Assembly (NCBI GenBank): GCA_016432425.1
Contig: CP066688.1
Location: 148,368-212,367 of the forward strand
Length of the DNA stretch: 64,000 nucleotides
Direction of reading: 5' to 3'
Origin: Candidatus Daviesbacteria bacterium
Lineage (GTDB): Bacteria > Patescibacteriota > Microgenomatia > Daviesbacterales > UBA10151
Of this stretch, positions 5,506 through 60,877 are shown one piece after another; the stretch's first letter is position 1, and every line of letters begins with the position of its first letter. Made by a program: the position numbers and the translations under genes. A model generated the notes under the pieces. It was not told the origin of the DNA. It ran no database searches and was given only the letters and a program-made list of their open reading frames with translations.

Positions 5506-6401
5506 TTCACTCTATTTGCCACTTTTTGTACAAATCTTTTAAGGGGATTTTTAGATAAATTGCCATATTTAAACCAATAATCTAAATCCTCACCGGATTT
5601 TTTCTTTAGTTGTCTAAGCTCAGTTAAGTCAATTTCTTTTGAAAAAAATTTCTCTTTTTCCCAAACTTTTAGATACATAATCAGAAAAGAAAAAGCTTGG
5701 AGCAAACTTAAAGATAGACCATGAAGGCCATCTTCAAAACCGCGGTTAGCAAAAAACCGGCTTAAAAATTCTGACAGCGGCTTAGTTAAAAGATCTGACC
5801 AACTAAATTTATAGCCATTTTCTATTAGCTCGTTTGCCTGAATTGTAGTATAACGATTTAATCGCTCCACGAATTCGTTAATTGTGCGATAGTGATGGTG
5901 AGTAATTGCCAACTCTTCCTTTAGCTCTAATTTCATTCCCTCCCCTGCCACATCTGGTGGACGATGAATTTTATTACTCCATTTAACCGCGCCTTTTCTA
6001 AAAAATCTAATGTTATAATCCGGCCACCACATAGAAGCTTTCATCCATTTGTTAAAGATGATATTTTTCCGAGGTATTTCTACATAGTTGATTTGCTCCA
6101 AATTTTTGCTAATATCGCGCAGTCTTTTTGCCAGTTCTGAAGAAATTTCTTCGTCGGTATCTAAAATTAAAATCCAATCACCACTGGCTTTAGAAATTGC
6201 CAGATTGCGGGCCGGCTCGACAAATCCAACACTTTTGTGTTTATATATTTTATTGGTATATTTTTTGGCGATTTTAATGGTGTCATCGGTTGACCCATCA
6301 TCCACCACTACAATTTCATCTGCCCATTGGACTGAAGTTAGGGCTGTTTCCAAATATAGGGCAGCATTTAAAGCATTAATCACCACAGAAATATTGGCCA
6401 T
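5502..6401 (-). CDS. Glycosyltransferase family 2
   Basis: ISVVINALN...WADEIVVVDDGSTDDTIKIAK...ILDTDEE. It shares a 64-nt identical tract with the GT2 gene at 765..1577. Confidence 0.8.
   Translation of the reverse strand: MANISVVINALNAALYLETALTSVQWADEIVVVDDGSTDDTIKIAKKYTNKIYKHKSVGFVEPARNLAISKASGDWILILDTDEEISSELAKRLRDISKNLEQINYVEIPRKNIIFNKWMKASMWWPDYNIRFFRKGAVKWSNKIHRPPDVAGEGMKLELKEELAITHHHYRTINEFVERLNRYTTIQANELIENGYKFSWSDLLTKPLSEFLSRFFANRGFEDGLHGLSLSLLQAFSFLIMYLKVWEKEKFFSKEIDLTELRQLKKKSGEDLDYWFKYGNLSKNPLKRFVQKVANRVK
6265..6328. repeat. 64-nt tract identical to 1447..1510
   Basis: See the partner feature at 1447..1510. Confidence 0.85.
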
Positions 6402-17951: not shown

Positions 17952-20167
17952 GACCTAACCTTCCTCGACTCTGGCGGTTTCCCGCTAGGATTATGTATTA
18001 GTTTAAATACTTTTACACCTCTAAACTGTGACTCTTCTTCTACCTTAGCCCAACCAAAGTGGGAAATTTCTTGTTTGGGATGGCCAATTGGCTCACAGAC
18101 AGGATCTTCACAAACCACAAATAACTGCTCCGTTATTTCAAATGGTATTTGAGCTGGTTTGTATCCATACAAACCTAAATAAAATTGATATGCAGCATCA
18201 TAGTTGTTTTTAGCGATCAGGGCAAAATTAAATGGTTTGTCCGCTGATTTCTCAATTACATACTTGGCTATATCCTGTGTCCTCTGTAGTTGGTTATTGG
18301 GCGCAAGAGTTAAGGGGCTTTTTTGTAGATTAAAAACTGCCAGAACTACAATCAAAACCGCGGCTGATATTTTCATTAATTGTTTTAATGGGCCAGTGTA
18401 AAAAAATGCTAAACTATAAAAACTCCCCAGTAGGATAAATGGTACCGGACTGACAAACCCTAAATAGTGGGCATAAACATTTTGTTTATATAAAGCCAAA
18501 CCTAAAAGTGATCCTGCGAGCCAAACACCTAACATTAAATAGGGCCAAGATAAAATACCATCCTTAATTTTTCTCCCGAAAAACAATGCTAAAGGTATTA
18601 AAACTGCAACTGAGGTAATTAAAGTCAAGGTTTTCTCTTGGACTGTCAAGTAAGTGCCAATTAAAGATTCTTGGTAGAGAGGGACAATCCTAAACAGAGA
18701 GTTGACAGGGTTTAAGTTAACAGTAGCCTCCCTGTTACCAAAAAAATTTTGCAAGGCCTGAAAGTTCATAAAATTATGTTTTAAGTCAAAAAGTAGGAGC
18801 GGGGACATTAAAATTAAAAATACCAAAATAGCCAATATTGTTCCCGACCTCACATTTCCTAATTCCCTTTTTTGAGACTTACTATAAATTATTTGATGTA
18901 GCCATAAAACTGCTGCTATAGGAATTAAAATTAAAGCCAGATAATGCATTTGGACAACAAAAGCCAGCGCTCCCCCGCTTAAAATGAGCCAGCGGAAATT
19001 ACCTGTTTGATGGATTTTATATAAACCAAATATGCAAAGTAAGGCAAAAAATGGCGCCGGATTAGGATTCCAAGATGAGCGGGAATAGATGATATTGACC
19101 GGTGAAATACTATAAAGAAAGGCTGCTACCAAACCGGCCTGTTTGGAAAACCACTGGCTCGTTAGATGGTAAATCAACCAGACTGTTAAAATTCCAATGA
19201 CAGCTACCTGGTAAGCTGCCGCGACGGGATTTAGCCAAAAAATAGCCATGGGAATTGCCATCATATAGTAATAAAGGGGGCCTAAATAAATATTGCCAAT
19301 GGAGGTAGGTGGGCCAATAAATGGTAGGTCACGTTCCACTAATAATTTTTTAATTACCAAAGCATCTCTCCCTTCATCGCCCAAAAAGGTCATATATTCC
19401 GGTAGGCGGTAAAATCGCAAAATCGCCGTTAACCCTAAAAGTAACATCAAAATTAGAAATTCTTTTTTATCCAAAAGTACCCACCACAGTTTTAGTAAAT
19501 CTAAATAACTTTTAGCGACCACTTTTAAATTGGCTCCGGTTTGGGTACCGAATTTTCTCGGGTAATGGTGTACTCCCACCTCTAAAATTTTAAAACCCAT
19601 TCTTCGGGCTTTAACCAAAAACTCTATCTGGGTGACTTTTTCCTCCCCCACTAACGGTTGAACTTTTTCAAAAACTTGTTTTTTAATTAATTTAAATCCA
19701 CAAGAATAATCTCTGACATTTAAACCTAAAAGTAGTTTTGCCCCTACATTCCACACATAAGCTCCCACTATTCTGCTGAAAGAGTCCATTCTTTTAAGCC
19801 TATATCCCAAAACTAAATCTGCCTGATCAGCTTTTTCCAAAAGTTTTTTAATCTCGCCAAAGTCAAATTGGCCATCTGAATCGGCAAAAGCTACCCAGGA
19901 AAATTTAGCTGCCTTGAATCCGGTTTTTAGCGCTGCCCCATAGCCTAAATTGTGGGGGTGGGCCACCAATTTAATTTTTCTGTTTGTTTGCGAAAAATTC
20001 TCAACGATTTCTCTGGTTTTATCTTTTGATCCATCATCCACCACCACAATTTCATAATCTTCTAAGGTCAATCCTGTCAGAACTTTTACTGAGTCCGCAA
20101 TAGTTTTTTGGATATTAGCTTCTTCGTTAAAAGCCGGGAAGAAAACAGATAATTTGTCTACACTCAT
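17948..20167 (-). CDS. Fusion protein: N-terminal GT2 polyprenol-phosphate sugar synthase plus C-terminal polytopic GT-C-like domain
   Basis: The N-terminal ~230 aa carry SVFFPAFNEEANI...VVVDDGSKDKT...FADSDGQ. The C-terminal ~500 aa are multi-TM. Confidence 0.7.
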   Translation of the reverse strand: MSVDKLSVFFPAFNEEANIQKTIADSVKVLTGLTLEDYEIVVVDDGSKDKTREIVENFSQTNRKIKLVAHPHNLGYGAALKTGFKAAKFSWVAFADSDGQFDFGEIKKLLEKADQADLVLGYRLKRMDSFSRIVGAYVWNVGAKLLLGLNVRDYSCGFKLIKKQVFEKVQPLVGEEKVTQIEFLVKARRMGFKILEVGVHHYPRKFGTQTGANLKVVAKSYLDLLKLWWVLLDKKEFLILMLLLGLTAILRFYRLPEYMTFLGDEGRDALVIKKLLVERDLPFIGPPTSIGNIYLGPLYYYMMAIPMAIFWLNPVAAAYQVAVIGILTVWLIYHLTSQWFSKQAGLVAAFLYSISPVNIIYSRSSWNPNPAPFFALLCIFGLYKIHQTGNFRWLILSGGALAFVVQMHYLALILIPIAAVLWLHQIIYSKSQKRELGNVRSGTILAILVFLILMSPLLLFDLKHNFMNFQALQNFFGNREATVNLNPVNSLFRIVPLYQESLIGTYLTVQEKTLTLITSVAVLIPLALFFGRKIKDGILSWPYLMLGVWLAGSLLGLALYKQNVYAHYLGFVSPVPFILLGSFYSLAFFYTGPLKQLMKISAAVLIVVLAVFNLQKSPLTLAPNNQLQRTQDIAKYVIEKSADKPFNFALIAKNNYDAAYQFYLGLYGYKPAQIPFEITEQLFVVCEDPVCEPIGHPKQEISHFGWAKVEEESQFRGVKVFKLIHNPSGKPPESRKVRS

Positions 20168-26024: not shown

Positions 26025-26426
26025 CTAGTATACCAAGTTATCTTCTATTTTTTTACTGTTGACGGGAATACCCAGAGACAATCCTAGAGCATTGGCTACT
26101 GAAACTCCCACTCTCAAACCAGTAAAAGATCCCGGCCCAGTTTCTACCTCAATTCCAGTCAAAATTTTCCAATTTGAATTTGCACAATTTGCACTCCTGG
26201 TCTGTTTTTGAACCTGCACTCCCGGAGTGTAGGTTTGAAGTAACTTTTCTATTAGTGGCAGTAAAACTTGAGATCCATACTCATTTTCCTGGCTTAAACT
26301 AGCCATTACTTCCCCATCTTTTTTAAGAGAAACCTCCACCACTTTTTGGTCTTTGGTATTAATATGGAGTATCATCATAATACGAATTTTACCACGAGCA
26401 GGGATGACATCATACACGCTTGACAA
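26025..26426 (-). CDS. tsaB: tRNA t6A biosynthesis protein TsaB-like (short form); the true start may be the internal Met near 26378
   Basis: ...ILTGIEVETGPGSFTGLRVGVSVANALGLSLGIPV matches the conserved TsaB/YeaZ core (GPGSFTG(L/V)R). It carries a 45-nt in-frame repeat insertion (see finding). Confidence 0.55.
   Translation of the reverse strand: MSSVYDVIPARGKIRIMMILHINTKDQKVVEVSLKKDGEVMASLSQENEYGSQVLLPLIEKLLQTYTPGVQVQKQTRSANCANSNWKILTGIEVETGPGSFTGLRVGVSVANALGLSLGIPVNSKKIEDNLVY
26188..26232. repeat. In-frame palindromic repeat element (45 nt) inside tsaB
   Basis: TTGCACTCCTGGTCTGT is a 17/17 reverse-complement match to 48593..48609. AACCTGCACTCCCGGAGTG is an 18/19 match to 48563..48581. Confidence 0.6.
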
Positions 26427-39257: not shown

Positions 39258-40265
39258 ATGGATCCACAAAATCCCAATAGTACTGACCCAAATAATCCAA
39301 ATATTCCCGCCTCTGGCCCAGGTGCTATCCCTCCTCCGCCTGTTACTCCTGTCCCGGTTCAGCCTGATTTAAGCAGTGCCTTAGGTCCTACTCCTCCACC
39401 AGTAGAACCTATTCCTACCCCAGACTCTAATCAGGTAAATATTCCACCTACTCCACCTACTCCAGACTTCAACCCCACACTTACCTATACCCCTCCTAGT
39501 TGGATGAATCCTTCTGCTACTACTCCTGCTAGTGATCCACTAATTCAAAATCCACTATCTGATGTTAATCCACCCGTACCCGCTCCCTTAGATAATCCCA
39601 TTGCGCCGCCGCCTACCCCTAGCGTTCCTCCGGTTGACCAGCCTATCGCACCCACTGAACCCACTCCAGCCGCTCCTCCACCGGTAGAGCCAATCCCCAC
39701 TTACATCCCTCCAGTCACTCCTATACCAGAAACATCTCCACCACCTCCACCGGCAGAACCTACTCCCGTAGGACCTAATCCCATTACTGAATCTAATTTA
39801 TCTCAAGGCGCACCGGTGGATTTATCTCAATTAATTAGCAATGCTCAACAGCAAGTCCAAACGGAAAATCCTGGTGGAATACCTGCCAGTCCCATCCCTA
39901 CGTCTACTGAGGGAGTTGTCAACGCCACCTCTGGGGTTATTACCGACACTGCTGTTTCTGGTAATGAACAAAGTTCTTCTATGAATAAAGGTTTGCCTAA
40001 ATGGCTAATTGGGGTAGCAGTAGGGCTGCTCATATTGGTTATCGGAGCCTCTGCTTATTTTATTTTAGGAATTGGTCAAAGTAATACCCAAACTTCACTG
40101 CCGGCTACTCAAAATACTGGGCAGTTGTCTACTCCGGCTCCCATCTCTTCACCTCGCAGTGTAGTTGCTCCTTCCTCATCTACTTCCTCTGGCCAACCAA
40201 CTGTGATTACACCACCAGCCACCTCAGCCGCAGATTTAATTAGACAAAGACAACAAGAACAATAA
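39258..40265 (+). CDS. Proline-rich surface-anchored low-complexity protein
   Basis: The first ~190 aa are extremely Pro-rich (PPVEPIPTP repeats). A single TM helix (WLIGVAVGLLILVIGASAYFILGI) is followed by an S/T-rich tail. Confidence 0.5.
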   Translation: MDPQNPNSTDPNNPNIPASGPGAIPPPPVTPVPVQPDLSSALGPTPPPVEPIPTPDSNQVNIPPTPPTPDFNPTLTYTPPSWMNPSATTPASDPLIQNPLSDVNPPVPAPLDNPIAPPPTPSVPPVDQPIAPTEPTPAAPPPVEPIPTYIPPVTPIPETSPPPPPAEPTPVGPNPITESNLSQGAPVDLSQLISNAQQQVQTENPGGIPASPIPTSTEGVVNATSGVITDTAVSGNEQSSSMNKGLPKWLIGVAVGLLILVIGASAYFILGIGQSNTQTSLPATQNTGQLSTPAPISSPRSVVAPSSSTSSGQPTVITPPATSAADLIRQRQQEQ

Positions 40266-46822: not shown

Positions 46823-46898
46823 GCCGCGTTCGTCTAGTGGCCTAGGACATCGGATTCTCATTCCGAAAATCAGGGGTTCAAATCCCCTACGCGGTACC
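46823..46898 (+). tRNA. tRNA-Glu (anticodon CUC)
   Basis: A manual cloverleaf fold gives a 7-bp acceptor stem (GCCGCGU/ACGCGGU), a D-arm GUCUAGUGGCCUAGGAC, an anticodon stem UCGGA/UCCGA with loop UUCUCAU, and a T-arm AGGGGUUCAAAUCCCCU. The discriminator is A and CC is encoded. It is closely similar to canonical bacterial tRNA-Glu. Confidence 0.85.
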
Positions 46899-46906
46899 GA
46901 GCGATC

Positions 46907-46949
46907 CTACAAATTTAACCTGCAAACCTGCACTCCTGGAGTGAAATCG
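46907..46949. repeat. 43-nt direct repeat, copy 1 (half-element of the palindromic repeat family)
   Basis: CTACAAATTTAACCTGCAAACCTGCACTCCTGGAGTGAAATCG is identical to 48545..48587. Confidence 0.8.
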
Positions 46950-47135
46950 TTTAAGAACAGAAAGAGACCGACTAATCAATTACTTGAGTGAAAGTCAAAG
47001 ATATAAATAACTAGAAGTTTCTTGAAGATGGGTTCCCTTTCCCAGAGCAGAGAATAAACGCACTTCCAGGATAGTAAAAACGACCTCCTTTAACGGTTAT
47101 TTCTGCAGAGGGGAGGCCACCATACCCCATAGGTA

Positions 47136-47163
47136 TTGACTTTATGAGTCTAATGCATATAAT
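47136..47163 (+). promoter_or_regulatory. Near-consensus sigma70 promoter (TTGACT-N16-TATAAT)
   Basis: TTGACT is at 47136..47141 and TATAAT at 47158..47163, about 22 nt upstream of the ATG at 47185. Confidence 0.5.
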
Positions 47164-47184
47164 TTAACAATCTGCCTAATAAAT

Positions 47185-47949
47185 ATGGCTACTGAAGGTC
47201 AACCAACACCAATTCCAAATTTAATTATTGCCCATGTCAACGAAAATCTTTTATTAACCCATGTTAGGACTGTTTCAGATCCTAAGTCTTTACTAGATCG
47301 AAACACCATACATGGAGATCCCTATTTACATAACGTTAAACTTTTCGCAGCCTTTAAAGAACCAGAATATGATCCTGCTAAGATGACTGCTGCTTTAAAT
47401 GAATTAATCACAGCACTAAGATCTTATGAATTTAAAGGAAGTGCTATGGGAAGTAGAATAGATCGTTTTTGGCATGGGGCTGGCAATTTAGTTCCTGGAG
47501 TATTATTTCTTCACGAGCCAATGGGTATAAGAGTAGAAACAAGTACTTGGAGTTTTAAACCCAACAATGAATATGCCAGAGGAGTTATGGCTCAAGCAGG
47601 AATGGAAGAGGGACAAGAGCATACAAAAGTTGAAGAAAAACCTATGTGGAGACAGGTTTCTACTACTATTCTCCCTTCGATCCCCTTAGCAAACTTAGCT
47701 GCAACTAATGAAGAAATGAGTAATATTCCAAAACAGGAGGACAGACCATTTCCTGTTAAAAATTCCTTATATGCGTATCATGGGGTATTAAGCCTGGGAG
47801 ACCTTGAGAAGCTTAAACAAGATCCAACTTATGTACAGGAGATGGCTGATAAAGCATTAGTGGGTTACAGAGTTCCAGGAATAACTAGAAGACCAGGAAG
47901 AATTGAAAGAATAGCTCAAACTTTTGGTTTTCTGCCTTCTCAAGGTTAA
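47185..47949 (+). CDS. Hypothetical protein (254 aa) in the tRNA-adjacent islet
   Basis: This is an ORF with a strong upstream promoter. No family is recognised. Confidence 0.5.
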   Translation: MATEGQPTPIPNLIIAHVNENLLLTHVRTVSDPKSLLDRNTIHGDPYLHNVKLFAAFKEPEYDPAKMTAALNELITALRSYEFKGSAMGSRIDRFWHGAGNLVPGVLFLHEPMGIRVETSTWSFKPNNEYARGVMAQAGMEEGQEHTKVEEKPMWRQVSTTILPSIPLANLAATNEEMSNIPKQEDRPFPVKNSLYAYHGVLSLGDLEKLKQDPTYVQEMADKALVGYRVPGITRRPGRIERIAQTFGFLPSQG

Positions 47950-48353
47950 CTCTTTTTAGCTTCTTTAATTTTATCAGTTATTTCTTTTTTTGAATATTCC
48001 TTATCTATTCTGAAAAAGATTGTGTAACTTTTCTTCTTTAATGGATTTGGATAAATAAAAATACAGACTTCAGGGATATAACCTCCATTTTTAATCTTTT
48101 TAGATTTATGCCATTTGTAGAGTCTTATCAGTAATTTCTCAATTTGGCTAGCTAGAAGGCTAGAAAATACTCCTAACCAGAATTCCTTCATGGTTAGCCA
48201 AGCCACTACAATTTCCTTTATCTCAGCTTCGCCGCCCCCACCCATTTGACCAGCTTTATATTTAAAACCTAGCTTTTCTAGTTCTTGAGCAAGAGAAGAA
48301 GAGGCAGGCTTATTATAGATATAAGGGTCTTCTCTTACAGAGTAGTATTTCAT
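47946..48353 (-). CDS. Hypothetical protein (135 aa), convergent with and overlapping the previous gene by 4 nt
   Basis: The ORF is K-rich at its C-terminus and has a hydrophobic segment (WLGVFSSLLAS). No family is recognised. Confidence 0.4.
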   Translation of the reverse strand: MKYYSVREDPYIYNKPASSSLAQELEKLGFKYKAGQMGGGGEAEIKEIVVAWLTMKEFWLGVFSSLLASQIEKLLIRLYKWHKSKKIKNGGYIPEVCIFIYPNPLKKKSYTIFFRIDKEYSKKEITDKIKEAKKS

Positions 48354-48481
48354 TGATTGTATTATAATGGTTTTAATCTCTAATGGTAGTTATACGCCAG
48401 ATTTGGCTTGAAGCTGGAATTGAGGAGATTTGCCCAAGCTTGCAATGAAGCTAGAAGCTGGTTCCAATTCTCAATCATTTG

Positions 48482-48494
48482 GGGTACCGAGCGA
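48482..48494. repeat. Duplicated 13-nt copy of the tRNA-Glu 3' end (GGTACCGAGCGAT), a candidate att-site remnant
   Basis: It is an exact match to 46893..46905, which spans the tRNA 3' end and 9 nt beyond. The upstream ~30 nt (GGTTCCAATTCTCAATCATTTGGG) loosely resembles a degraded T-arm. Confidence 0.55.
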
Positions 48495-48544
48495 TTACAT
48501 TATCACATAATGAGTCTTTTAAGTATTAAATATTTATTTTCCAA

Positions 48545-48608
48545 CCTACAAATTTAACCTGCAAACCTGCACTCCTGGAGTGAAATCGAATTGACAGACC
48601 AGGAGTGC
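48545..48608. repeat. Palindromic repeat element, full copy (43-nt direct repeat plus an inverted arm forming an 11-bp stem)
   Basis: 48545..48587 equals 46907..46949. TGCACTCCTGG (48567..48577) pairs with CCAGGAGTGCA (48598..48608) around a 20-nt loop. Confidence 0.7.
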
Positions 48609-48694
48609 AAGTTCAGACTGAAATGCACAAATCTAGTTTAGTAATTAGGTTTGGTAATTAGGGATAATATGATATCCGCTCTCTTGTTTATTCA

Positions 48695-50713
48695 TTATGA
48701 TTTTAAAAATGGTACTAACAATAATGCCACAATATTAACTACCTTTATCATAGGGTTAATAGCTGGGCCGGCGGTATCTTTATAGGGGTCTCCCACTGTA
48801 TCCCCTGTGACTGCTGCTTTGTGAGCCTCCGAACCCTTTCCCCCAAATTTTCCGCTTTCAATATATTTCTTGGCATTATCCCAAGCTGCTCCACCAGTAG
48901 TCATAGAGATCGCTACAAAAAGACCCGTCACAATACTTCCTACTAACATTCCTCCCAAAGTAACTGGTCCTAGTACCAACCCTACAATTACCGGAGCCAG
49001 TACTGGAATCAAAGCCGGTACTAACATCTCTTTTTGCGCTTCTTTGGTAACAATGGAAACTGCTGCGCCGTAGTCCGGTTTGGCTGTTCCTTCCATAATT
49101 CCTTTAATAGTCTTAAATTGGCGACGCACTTCTTCCACCACTGCCCCACCGGCTCGCCCCACTGCCTCCATGGCATATGAGGCAAAAAGATATGGCAGTG
49201 CTCCTCCAATAAAAAGTCCTACCAACACATTAGGATCAGACAGAGAAAAACTTAAGCTATTACCAAATTCCTGTGCGTAAGAGGCAAACAAAACCATGGC
49301 TGCCAGTCCGGCTGAAGCAATGGCATAACCTTTAGTCACGGCTTTGGTAGTATTCCCTACCGCATCCAAAGGATCAGTCACGTTGCGTACTTTTTCCGGT
49401 AAATTAGCCATCTCGGCAATTCCCCCGGCATTATCAGTAATGGGACCAAAAGCATCAATTGCCACCACTATCCCGGCCAAAGACAACATCGCCACAGCTG
49501 CCACGGCAATTCCGTACAGACCGGCCAGAGAAAAGCTTAGCAGTACTGCTGCAGAAATTAGCAGCACCGGGAAAAAGGTAGACTTCATAGAAACTGCCAA
49601 ACCGGCAATCAAATTGGTGGCATGTCCTGTTCTGGAAGCAGAGGCAATATGCTGGACAGGTGAATACTGTGTCCCGGTATAATATTCAGTTAAATAAACC
49701 ATACCCGCTGTCACCAAAATTCCCACTATGGCACTTAAATATAAATTCATGACAGTAAAGCTGGCATTTGCCCCCATTAAATAATTTGTTAGAGGATAAA
49801 ACAGGATCACACACAAAACCGTAGTGGAAATTAAACCTTTATATAAGGCTCCCATAATATTTTTGGAAGAACTGGAATTACTACTAAGTCTGACAAAAAA
49901 GCTCCCCGCCACTGAGGCAAAAATCGCTGAAGCCATTAAGCTTAAAGGGTAAAGATAGGCATTTCCAAAATTTGGCAGCAGCAGATTTCCTAAGATAATG
50001 GCGGCCACGGCTGTGATCACATAAGTTTCAAAAATATCAGCCGCCATCCCGGCATCATCTCCCACATTATCCCCCACATTATCAGCAATAACAGCCGGAT
50101 TGCGGGGGTCATCTTCCGGAATTCCAGCCTCCACTTTACCCACTAAATCTGCGCCCACATCTGCTCCCTTGGTATAAATTCCTCCGCCTAAACGGGCAAA
50201 AACAGAGATCAGCGATCCTCCAAAACCCAAACCAATTAGCCCTTTAATATCGCCGCCCGTATATTGATAAAACCCATAGACTGCTCCCAAAGCCAAACCT
50301 ACCACCAAAAATCCGGTCACTGCTCCTCCCTTATAAGCTAAGGTAAAGGCCTGAGACAATCCATGTTTGGCTGCCTCAGCTACCCTGACATTACTGCGCA
50401 CTGCCACACTCATGCCGATAAAACCAGCCAAAGCTGACAAAACTGCCCCAATAAAAAATCCCAATGCTGTGTTAAGTCCCAAAAACTGGTAGATTAAAGC
50501 AATCAATATCAAAGCCACTACTGCCACCACAGAGTATTGTCTCTTCAGATAAGCATTAGCGCCCTCTTGGATTGCCAAGGCAATTTCTTGCATTTTTTCA
50601 TCACCAGCCCCCCGGCGTAAAATTTCCGTCACCAACCAACCACCATAAATTAAAGAAAGGGCCACCGCGGCCCAAATAATTAAGTTAATATTACCCAAAA
50701 TCTCTACCATCAC
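48695..50713 (-). CDS. hppA: Membrane-bound proton-translocating pyrophosphatase
   Basis: 672 aa and polytopic. The H+-PPase signature GADLVGKVE...DNVGDNVGD is present. Confidence 0.9.
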
Positions 50714-53826: not shown

Positions 53827-54570
53827 CAATTTATATTTCCACATCGGGAGTGGAATTATATTGACACATCGGTAAAATTGAGATACACTCAGCTGTAAAT
53901 GCCAGCAAGAACTACTCCTCTGGTAAATGAACAAATTTATCATATATATAATCGGGGTACAGAGAAAAGAAGAATCTTTGATAATAAAAGGTGTTATTCA
54001 AGATTCATACAGACTATTAGATATTATCAGCTAGAAGGCCCTAAACCTAAGTTTTCTAACTTTATTAAACAGAAGTTATTTAATCCTGATCCCGAGAAGA
54101 AGATAGTTGAAATAATCTGTTATTGTTTAATGCCAAATCACTTTCACTTATTGGTTAAACAATTAAAAGATGGGGGAATTAGTGAATTTATGAGAAAACT
54201 AAGTGATAGCTATACTAAATACTACAATATTAAATTTGAAAGAGTAGGAGCTTTATTACAAGGTCCATTTAAAGCAGTTTTAATAGAAACTGATGAACAG
54301 CTCACACATGTGTCCCGCTACATTCATTTAAATCCACTAGTGTCTTTTTTGGTAAAGGATTTAGCTCAATACGAATGGTCATCTTATGAAGAATACATTA
54401 ATAATAAATCAATTGGTATTTGTGTTAAAGAAAATGTGTTAGGTTTTTTCAAATCACCAGAGGATTATAAACAATTTGTCCTAGACCAAGCAGGTTATGG
54501 TCAACAACTAGAATTAATCAAACACCAATTAGTAGATGAATAATTTTGAGCCTACACATCGGGAGTGGAA
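53827..54570 (+). mobile_element. IS200/IS605-like or RAYT-type HUH Y1 transposase unit with 16-nt flanking direct repeats
   Basis: The transposase ORF is bracketed by CACATCGGGAGTGGAA at 53830..53845 and 54555..54570. Each repeat sits within a short inverted repeat (TTCCAC...GTGGAA). Confidence 0.7.
53899..54543 (+). CDS. REP-associated tyrosine transposase / IS200-family HUH transposase (COG1943-like)
   Basis: YHIYNRGTEKRRIF...CYCLMPNHFHLLVKQ (HUH motif)...YTKYYN...GALLQGPFKAV...SRYIHLNPL (catalytic Tyr helix). 214 aa. Confidence 0.8.
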   Translation: MPARTTPLVNEQIYHIYNRGTEKRRIFDNKRCYSRFIQTIRYYQLEGPKPKFSNFIKQKLFNPDPEKKIVEIICYCLMPNHFHLLVKQLKDGGISEFMRKLSDSYTKYYNIKFERVGALLQGPFKAVLIETDEQLTHVSRYIHLNPLVSFLVKDLAQYEWSSYEEYINNKSIGICVKENVLGFFKSPEDYKQFVLDQAGYGQQLELIKHQLVDE

Positions 54571-60034: not shown

Positions 60035-60877
60035 TTAAATATTAACAATTTCAGAGAGAGTTTTAAACCGTGTTGGTAAAGTGTCAGAGAAAAACTCTTC
60101 TTGTTTTGTCCCCTGTAAAGTTAACCCTTCTTGCCAAAGGGCCCGGCCAGCCAAAAATCCCCGGGCCCCAGCTTTGGTAGCTACTGCCAGTTGCAATTTA
60201 AATTCTTCAAAACTAACACCACCCGTCAACAGTATCCAGGGGGTCTTTCCCACCAAATGAGAAATTTCCCGGCAGGCATCCTCATCTCCTGGATATTCCA
60301 ATTTCCAAACATCTGGTATTACTCCTACCTCTATAAAAGACCTGACTGATTCAATCACCATCCCAGCTTTTGAATCTACACTCCCGATGTGGAATTGTAC
60401 CTGCACATCGGGAGTGTAAGTTACAATTTCTAAAAAGAAAGGCAAATTATTTTGCTGACAATCTTTTAAAACCTGTTTAGCTGTTTCTAGCTGCACTTTT
60501 GCACTCCCTAATTGAGGATTAAAATAGACCAGTAATTTCGCTCCTGAGGCTCCTAAGTTTTTAACCTGCTCTACAGAATATTCTAATTCCGTAATTCTTT
60601 CTCTCTCCTGATCAAGAAAACCGCTTTTTTCTACAGGAAGCAGAAATGGTTTTAGTTGACAAGCTTCTTTGCAAGCTTCTAGACCAAAACGCTCGTCAAT
60701 CAAAAGCCCACTCATTTCATTGACCAAAGAATTAATGATTTTATTTTTTAGATCAATAATTTGCTCTTCTGTAACCTCCTGGGGGTTTCCCGGATTAACT
60801 ATTTTTTTAAAACTATCCCGATGATCCAAAGCCAACATTAAAAACTTACCGTTTTTTTGGAATTTAATGGTATTCAT
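60035..60877 (-). CDS. Class I aldolase, tagatose-1,6-bisphosphate aldolase (LacD)/DhnA-like, carrying an in-frame palindromic insert
   Basis: LMLALDHRDSF resembles the LacD-family N-terminal motif. The (beta/alpha)8 pattern runs through ...LLTGGVSFEEF. Confidence in the exact family is moderate. Confidence 0.55.
   Translation of the reverse strand: MNTIKFQKNGKFLMLALDHRDSFKKIVNPGNPQEVTEEQIIDLKNKIINSLVNEMSGLLIDERFGLEACKEACQLKPFLLPVEKSGFLDQERERITELEYSVEQVKNLGASGAKLLVYFNPQLGSAKVQLETAKQVLKDCQQNNLPFFLEIVTYTPDVQVQFHIGSVDSKAGMVIESVRSFIEVGVIPDVWKLEYPGDEDACREISHLVGKTPWILLTGGVSFEEFKLQLAVATKAGARGFLAGRALWQEGLTLQGTKQEEFFSDTLPTRFKTLSEIVNI
60377..60418. repeat. Perfect 15-bp-stem palindromic element (42 nt) lying in-frame inside the aldolase gene
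   Basis: TACACTCCCGATGTG-gaattgtacctg-CACATCGGGAGTGTA. The arms match the transposase-flanking repeat CACATCGGGAGTG. Confidence 0.75.

Follow-up and report, generated by a model that had tools for sequence, protein, structure and literature searches.

How two genes without a recognisable family came to lie next to a tRNA gene, enclosed by a direct repeat that begins inside the tRNA gene itself, is the question raised by a locus of a Candidatus Daviesbacteria bacterium (GCA_016432425.1, contig CP066688.1, positions 148,368-212,367 of the forward strand). The window, that is the whole stretch analysed, comprises 64,000 nt and has a GC content of 0.386; window coordinates are used throughout, and the loci and contigs of relatives bear L-numbers. 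In this window a segment of about 1.6 kb, here called the islet, follows a tRNA-Glu gene and precedes hppA, the gene for an H+/Na+-pyrophosphatase. The answer that we tentatively favour, and whose chances we put only slightly below even, is the capture of a module containing the gene p254, together with the gene p135, into the spacer that separates tRNA-Glu from hppA; 57 bp of the target would have been duplicated, and the joints would lie at the sequence GGTACC and at the tip of a hairpin-forming repeat.

The tRNA-Glu(CUC) gene is the single tRNA gene that ARAGORN found in the window. A 13-mer at its 3' end, GGTACCGAGCGAT, had been described as recurring exactly at 48482-48494. It does recur, one position further on at 48483-48495, and is present in exactly two copies in the window, against 0.04 expected in shuffled sequence even if one mismatch is allowed. 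With the tRNA ending at 46898, six nucleotides of the 13-mer belong to the tRNA (GGTACC, G70-C75) and seven to the downstream region, which corrects the earlier division into four and nine. A pair of identical 43-mers was likewise found as described (46907-46949 and 48546-48588, the second one position off the earlier value; none expected), and the C preceding both copies extends the identical block to 44 nt. This block was said to trail each 13-mer. At the first copy the two are indeed contiguous and form one block of 57 nt, whereas at the second copy 49 nt lie between them. No other copy of this AT-rich segment was found in the window or the loci fetched; a resemblance to the p254 promoter over 13 nt (85% identity, E = 2) was not significant and was dropped. 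The two copies are direct repeats 1590-1639 nt apart, and the second lies downstream of the tRNA in the same orientation. The features of the locus are listed in the table.

Table. Features of the tRNA-Glu/hppA locus and of the transposase gene nearby, in window coordinates
Feature	Position	Strand	Basis or remark
tRNA-Glu (anticodon CTC), intact	46823..46898	+	ARAGORN
13-mer, repeat copy 1	46893..46905	+	exact match
44-mer, copy 1: 17-nt unique spacer and left half of REPIN	46906..46949	+	
Unique 186-nt leader of the insert	46950..47135	+	matches nothing else in the window or the loci fetched
Sigma-70-type promoter of p254, TTGACT-16-TATAAT	47136..47163	+	11/12 positions; kept upstream of the L007 and L008 homologues
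p254, 254-aa orphan protein	47185..47949	+	
p135, 135-aa orphan protein	47946..48353	-	convergent with p254, 4-nt overlap
Box1, TAATCTCTAATGGTAGTTAT, conserved non-coding motif	48374..48393	+	
Box2, TTCTCAATCATTTGGGGTACC	48468..48488	+	shares its last 6 nt with the start of repeat copy 2
13-mer, repeat copy 2	48483..48495	+	exact match
Unique AT-rich 49-nt segment splitting copy 2, absent in copy 1	48496..48544	+	
44-mer, copy 2, within the complete REPIN	48545..48588	+	
Complete REPIN-type hairpin	48562..48615		arms 48564-48578 and 48599-48613, 20-nt loop; DNA fold z = -3.8
hppA, conserved right-hand neighbour	48695..50713	-	
RAYT-like Y1 transposase gene (53899-54543) with flanking REPs	53831..54570	+	Pfam, NCBIfam, repeat family

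Both 44-mers bear the same repetitive extragenic palindromic (REP) sequence in the same orientation. The preliminary description had assigned the 43-mer to a palindromic family of the window, and this membership stands, but not for a whole repeat unit. Comparison with the paralogous copy at 26165-26245 showed that only the last 27 nt are the repeat-family part, and that the first 17 nt (CCTACAAATTTAACCTG), like the 13-mer, are ordinary spacer. The 44-mer therefore consists of unique spacer and one half of a REPIN, an inverted REP doublet. On the hppA side the REPIN is complete. On the tRNA side the half-REPIN stops 6 nt past the palindrome CACTCCTGGAGTG and can form only a 5-bp hairpin (z = -0.6). 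The identity between the copies stops between 46949 and 46950 and between 48588 and 48589, 10 nt into the 20-nt loop and thus at its exact centre. Because the 44-mer is only half a REPIN plus spacer, and because the identity ends at the loop centre, the repeats are best read as one segmental duplication reaching from the last six nucleotides of the tRNA to the tip of the REPIN hairpin, and not as two independent REP insertions. The identity of the copies at 57 of 57 positions suggests a recent event.

The spacer was then compared with that of relatives. Metagenomes were scanned with the M49-like peptidase encoded nearby, which gave 18 loci, and tRNA scans and tblastn showed that the gene order Lon-hppA-spacer-tRNA-Glu(ctc)-GreA-M49 is kept in the relatives. 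The spacer, measured from the hppA stop codon to the tRNA, is readable in seven of them and has a different content in each: 110 nt without a gene in L105, 437 nt and 484 nt with a response regulator in L093 and L095, 610 nt with one open reading frame (ORF) in L104, 892 nt and 949 nt with other genes in L100 and L098, and 1140 nt in L099 with a gene for a REP-associated tyrosine transposase (RAYT) flanked by 23-nt REPs. In the window it measures 1796 nt and holds p254 and p135. No relative of either gene and no direct repeat involving the tRNA end was present in the seven spacers, and cargo flanked by repeats was seen neither there nor around the distant p254 homologues. The orientation of tRNA-Glu(ctc) also varies, L095, L099 and L105 differing from L093, L098, L100 and L104, with the tRNA inverted in three of the relatives. 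Since the relatives' spacers differ throughout and never hold p254 or p135, this position is a turnover hotspot, and p254 and p135 are lineage-specific cargo. The view that the segment is an accessory insertion beside tRNA-Glu is thereby supported: the seven syntenic relatives have other or no spacer content, and ancestral genes kept at this position without the repeats, which would have spoken against it, are found in none of them. A further locus, L109, has a repeat of 20-26 nt (AGTTCGAAAATCGTCCCATT...) in triplicate in the spacer region beyond tRNA-Glu. A genome scan based on hppA, whose product is too conserved for this use, gave L009 as the nearest match (79% identity), with a different arrangement, and exact look-ups of hppA from two candidate start codons returned no record.

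Two convergent genes and no integrase had been noted in the islet, and both statements proved correct. p254 and p135 are the only ORFs of at least 60 aa, and neither has a family in Pfam, PHROG, PADLOC or NCBIfam; in particular, no recombinase was found with these four collections and no Y1_Tnp (tnpA) match. The integrase scan, in which the islet ORFs and 25 other window proteins were compared with Pfam, was negative also for the latter 25, and no replication gene is recognisable in the islet. About 130 nt of non-coding sequence separate p135 from the right repeat copy.

p254 corresponds to HYW45_00890 of a Candidatus Daviesbacteria metagenome-assembled genome (contig of 820,589 bp). Its relatives are extremely rare, a profile search finding seven representatives in 1.84 billion proteins. 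An AlphaFold2 model built from seven sequences has a confident fold (predicted local distance difference test, pLDDT, 82.4; predicted template modelling score, pTM, 0.75), for which Foldseek found nothing significant in PDB or BFVD (best E = 7e-3, template modelling scores of 0.2-0.3). The closest homologues, in L007 and L008, are 64-65% identical and have the same promoter. More distant ones lie between RuvX/YceG and a BrnT/BrnA toxin-antitoxin pair (L110) and between a deacetylase and an amino-acid kinase (L112). The homologue in L111 (1-1130) has a stop at codon 4 and is probably a pseudogene; it adjoins a REP-like palindrome, TTCCACCCCGGGGGTGGAA, on its downstream side, and repeats of about 11 nt of the type TAACGGCAAGC lie upstream. 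For p135 a single homologue was found (L089, 347-1596; 67% identity) in a context unlike the islet, where it overlaps the start of a gene that matches the PADLOC candidate defence family PDC-S14 (9.8e-83) and has a DUF4357 C-terminus. An origin from a phage or plasmid was considered and discarded: IMG/VR contains no p254 relative and no Box1, and tblastn gave no match in PLSDB or INPHARED. The comparison of base composition and codon usage with the flanks, which had been proposed as a check, came out divided. The GC content at third codon positions of p254 is low (0.224 compared with 0.334 +/- 0.053 for the window genes, about two standard deviations below the mean), but the overall GC content (p254 0.382, p135 0.326) is not distinctive.

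Downstream of p254 the non-coding sequence contains two motifs, Box1 (TAATCCCTAATGGTAGTTAT) and Box2 (TTCTGAAACATTTGGGGTACC), that are common to the p254 loci of the window, L007 and L008. They were found at p254 loci only, these three being the known cases. Box1 and Box2 are separated by 10-80 nt of unrelated sequence; the element is thus bipartite, its ends conserved and its middle variable, and measures between 46 and about 115 nt. L008 carries the motif on either side of the gene, once ahead of p251 and once in the interval to the gene that follows. Box2 has GGTAC(C) at its end, and this is where the repeat of the window starts. The left edge of the duplication thus coincides with the conserved end of a motif borne by the module, which happens to equal the GGTACC of the tRNA. 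A structured RNA is not supported as an explanation of the motif: folds of either strand gave z-scores from -2.1 to +2.2 and no common structure. The Box regions of L001, L007 and L008 have no Rfam match at E <= 1 and no significant likeness to tRNA, and by inspection Box1 shows only a loose ...TAA-6 nt-TTA... symmetry; the dif-like sites that bound Xer-dependent modules comprise 28 bp, with arms of 11 bp on either side of a 6-bp centre.

The repeat family to which the right edge of the duplication belongs was examined in the whole window. The palindrome core of the type CACTCCNGGAGTG occurs at nine sites (0.72 expected), and several family members are inverted doublets that would fold into long hairpins as single-stranded DNA, among them the doublet at 60377-60418 (DNA fold z = -6.4). 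Five kilobases from the islet an ORF at 53899-54543 is flanked by REPs in the same orientation (53831-53855 and 54546-54570). It matches Pfam Y1_Tnp (IS200-like) above the cutoff (1.4e-8) and the NCBIfam model REP_Tyr_transpos ('REP-associated tyrosine transposase') with 2.7e-14, at 53 bits below the 80-bit cutoff of that model; it is 60.6% identical to the transposase-like ORF of L099. There, at about 709-1849, a 217-aa RAYT lies in the same hppA/tRNA-Glu spacer between direct 23-nt REPs, CAATCCCGGATTGGAAAGTTAAA. The RAYT-like gene of the window is the probable trans-acting partner of its repeat family. The REPs flanking it are of the subtype CACATCGGGAGTG, those of the islet of the subtype CACTCCTGGAGTG.

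The window repeats and the RAYT-like gene have the anatomy of a REPIN/RAYT system as described in PMC3337134. With such systems (PMC3337134, PMC3116915) they share a family of short palindromic repeats, inverted doublets forming long hairpins, and one Y1 transposase gene, related to IS200, that lies between its REPs, and the repeats are intergenic and downstream of genes. They differ in the transposase score below the NCBIfam cutoff (53 vs 80 bits) and in the host, a bacterium of the candidate phyla radiation (CPR); the literature searched contained no paper on REPIN/RAYT in Patescibacteria/CPR. Moreover, known REPINs are non-coding and about 50-100 nt long; at this locus the duplicated unit is a half-REPIN plus 30 nt outside the repeat family, and its copies enclose 1.5 kb of coding DNA. 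Two members of the family lie within ORFs. The hairpin at 60370-60419 is inside an intact ORF for a DeoC/LacD-family aldolase (60035-60877, minus strand; about aa 153-170), in which comparison with PDB 8tnf showed no net insertion, the palindrome being coding sequence in a variable loop. The degenerate REP doublet at 26165-26245 is inside a short TsaD-like ORF (26025-26426, minus strand).

According to the reading we favour, the 1.6-kb segment would be recently acquired accessory DNA, composed of a promoter-bearing p254 module with its Box1/Box2 tail and of p135, and captured in the hypervariable tRNA-Glu/hppA spacer. Of the target, 57 bp would have been duplicated in the process, with GGTACC, common to the tRNA 3' end and the Box2 end, at the left edge and the exact loop centre of the resident REPIN hairpin at the right edge. 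Among the findings that support a capture, the exact direct repeats of 13 and 44 nt around both genes are far above chance, the homologues of p254 and p135 are rare and found in unrelated contexts, and the REPIN is intact only on the hppA side, with the breakpoint at its loop centre. Also in favour are the variable spacers of the syntenic relatives, the promoter and Box motifs shared with the two closest p254 homologues, the coincidence of the Box2 end with the start of the repeat, the RAYT-like gene with its REPs, the RAYT of L099 in the corresponding spacer, the full identity of the copies and the low third-position GC content of p254. No recombinase is carried by the islet; therefore the event would have been catalysed in trans. 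Two routes are conceivable. First, a circle of about 1.64 kb already bearing the short sequence may have entered by a Campbell-type single crossover; second, the REPIN hairpin, perhaps once nicked by the RAYT nearby, may have been the starting point of break repair or template switching. The repeats and their anatomy, the lack of the genes in relatives, the REPIN/RAYT nature of the repeat and the Box motifs are observed; that an insertion took place, that it is recent and how it was catalysed are what we infer. The repeats themselves may have had a part in the insertion, as had been suggested, and the breakpoint at the REPIN loop centre and the RAYT-like gene nearby strengthen this possibility.

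Several observations weigh against a capture of this kind. The 49-nt indel between the copies is not predicted by a simple target duplication and is left unexplained by every simple model. A crossover at GGTACC predicts differing sequence to the right of the core; the junctions share seven more nucleotides and then 44. No enzyme is tied to the event, and the overall GC content of the islet (0.33-0.38) falls inside the range of the window and lends little support to a foreign origin. Among the relatives whose spacer can be read, identity in the M49 protein is no more than 47-68%, and none provides the empty site of a close strain. Finally, the integrated order rests on the path of the assembler through the 44-nt repeat, where the k=31 contigs of Logan break.

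We weighed five further explanations. The one that survives best, although we consider it unlikely, is that a tyrosine integrase, since lost or encoded elsewhere, inserted the islet at the 3' end of tRNA-Glu in the classic site-specific manner. The attachment (att) core would then be the 13-mer or its GGTACC, and the islet would be a satellite or the remnant of an island. The islet abuts the tRNA 3' end, the orientation and configuration of the repeats fit, Box2 on the module ends in GGTACC as the core of attP would, the gene in L008 is flanked by Box repeats, and the islet genes are absent from relatives. The known crossover subsites in tRNA genes are the anticodon loop, the T loop and the junction of T and acceptor stems (PMC4383910), and any of these would displace a much longer fragment than the six tRNA nucleotides repeated here. 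A second, degraded tRNA behind the 13-nt match was looked for and rejected: at the right end ARAGORN (window and L001) and Rfam at E <= 1 (L001, L007 and L008) found no tRNA-like fragment, and the 3' part of the tRNA aligned to the right-end region no better than p = 0.10 against shuffles (p = 0.03-0.33 for the Box regions overall). Nor did the scan of the islet ORFs and of 25 further window proteins reveal an integrase. The further identity of 7 + 44 nt past the core, with its 49-nt indel, is not predicted by this explanation, and a crossover within the tRNA does not predict that spacer and half-REPIN make up most of the duplicated sequence. The islet is also smaller than any self-sufficient island. 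For these reasons the earlier interpretation of the repeats as attL and attR from a duplicated tRNA 3' end is not upheld.

The same comparison can be made with the tDNA islands that Islander recognises, which carry an integrase and are 2-200 kb long (PMC4383910, from which the features used here were taken). Of these features, an intact tRNA-Glu(ctc) at one end and a repeat downstream in the same orientation were found at the locus; a displaced tDNA fragment, a tyrosine integrase inside and a length of 2-200 kb (here 1590-1639 nt) were not. With tDNA islands (PMC4383910) the islet shares accessory genes directly 3' of an intact tRNA, a recurrent hotspot, absence from relatives and a bounding direct repeat that begins inside the tRNA 3' end. 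It differs from them in a repeat with only six tRNA nucleotides, in its spacer and half-REPIN content and 49-nt indel, in the lack of an integrase and in its size of 1.6 kb.

Slightly less probable is that nothing was imported. Both genes would have long resided in a spacer that evolves fast, and slippage or REP-mediated unequal exchange would have duplicated the tRNA-proximal 57 bp locally. Tandem duplications are known to have REP sequences as join-points, and insertion sequence (IS) elements are known that target REPs. The islet resembles such rearrangements in that one breakpoint is inside a REP-type hairpin and a duplication results, but its other breakpoint is a 6-bp identity with the tRNA end, not a second REP, and foreign coding DNA lies between the copies. 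A GC content like that of the flanks and a spacer that is rearranged in every relative, with flips of the tRNA orientation, would fit a local origin. It does not account for the lack of both genes in the seven relatives with a readable spacer, for homologues of p254 and p135 in unrelated contexts, for Box motifs that travel with p254, or for the coincidence of the left edge of the repeat with the end of Box2.

The Box motif admits a more far-reaching possibility, which we regard as equally doubtful: p254 with its Box1...Box2 tail could be a new kind of mini-cassette without an integrase that moves between chromosomal sites in CPR bacteria. The bipartite Box would be the recombination site, and a host enzyme, a RAYT or a recombinase of the Xer type, would do the chemistry. 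The module might also use secondary sites, for instance GGTACC where a tRNA gene ends beside a REPIN hairpin, and long duplications would then be left behind. Cassettes without an integrase that use recombinases in trans are known: integron cassettes and clusters of attC sites lacking integron-integrases (CALINs) on the one hand, Xer-dependent dif modules and integrative mobile elements exploiting Xer (IMEXs) on the other. Common to these and the module are a gene unit of about 1 kb, a conserved bipartite bounding site with a variable middle and the absence of a recombinase of their own, to which the motif on both sides of the p251 gene in L008 may be added. Unlike integron cassettes, the module has its own promoter, its Box1/Box2 consensus is not attC-like (inspection showed neither of the core sites RYYYAAC and GTTRRRY), and no IntI was present among the window proteins scanned.

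Slightly less probable again is mobilisation by the RAYT or in the manner of IS200, with the islet as a REP-bracketed composite moved as single-stranded DNA by a RAYT acting in trans. Y1 transposases such as that of IS608 cleave at an offset from the hairpin like the one seen here, the identity stopping 6 nt past the palindrome in both copies; the two 44-mers bear the same REP palindrome in the same orientation, and the RAYT gene 5 kb away likewise lies between REPs of one orientation. IS200/IS605 elements insert without target duplication, however, and here the 13-mer and 17 non-REP nucleotides are duplicated. Unlike IS200/IS605 transposons the islet lacks tnpA; both of its ends bear the palindrome in the same orientation, but with identity reaching far past the hairpin. 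The right copy is within a canonical REPIN and looks resident, not imported, the REP subtypes of the islet (CACTCCTGGAGTG) and of the RAYT gene (CACATCGGGAGTG) do not match, and RAYTs are not known to move cargo (PMC3337134).

Least probable is an ambiguity of the assembly, by which a free circle of 1.64 kb or a unit of another strain was threaded in through the shared 44-mer: Logan contigs do break in the tRNA and in the 44-mer, and the k=31 contig L001 (window 46920-48574, four samples), which breaks inside the 44-mer on both sides, fits a circle and an empty site equally well, but ordinary reads, like the large k-mers used by metagenome assemblers, exceed 44 nt, so that the published 820-kb contig should resolve a repeat of this length, L001 shows the junction Box2-13-mer-49 nt-44-mer as contiguous real sequence, and no replication gene is recognisable in the islet.

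Two observations concern other parts of the window. An ORF of 335 aa at 39258-40265 (plus strand) has a GC content of 0.485 and the most deviant codon usage of the window (Kullback-Leibler divergence 0.49), and has no Pfam match. A 73-nt repeat occurs at 1447-1519, 6265-6337 and 20001-20073, the first two copies being 96% identical and the third 63%; all are located within long ORFs, which suggests paralogous genes.

The islet is one case in one metagenome-assembled genome, which gives it modest weight, and it resembles known kinds of rearrangement, namely tRNA-linked islets and REP-associated ones. If the capture is true, CPR bacteria, with their reduced genomes, could take up very small promoter-bearing modules that lack a recombinase of their own at a conserved hotspot beside a tRNA gene, and a resident REPIN hairpin would mark one of the breakpoints, tying the REPIN/RAYT system to the gain of accessory genes.

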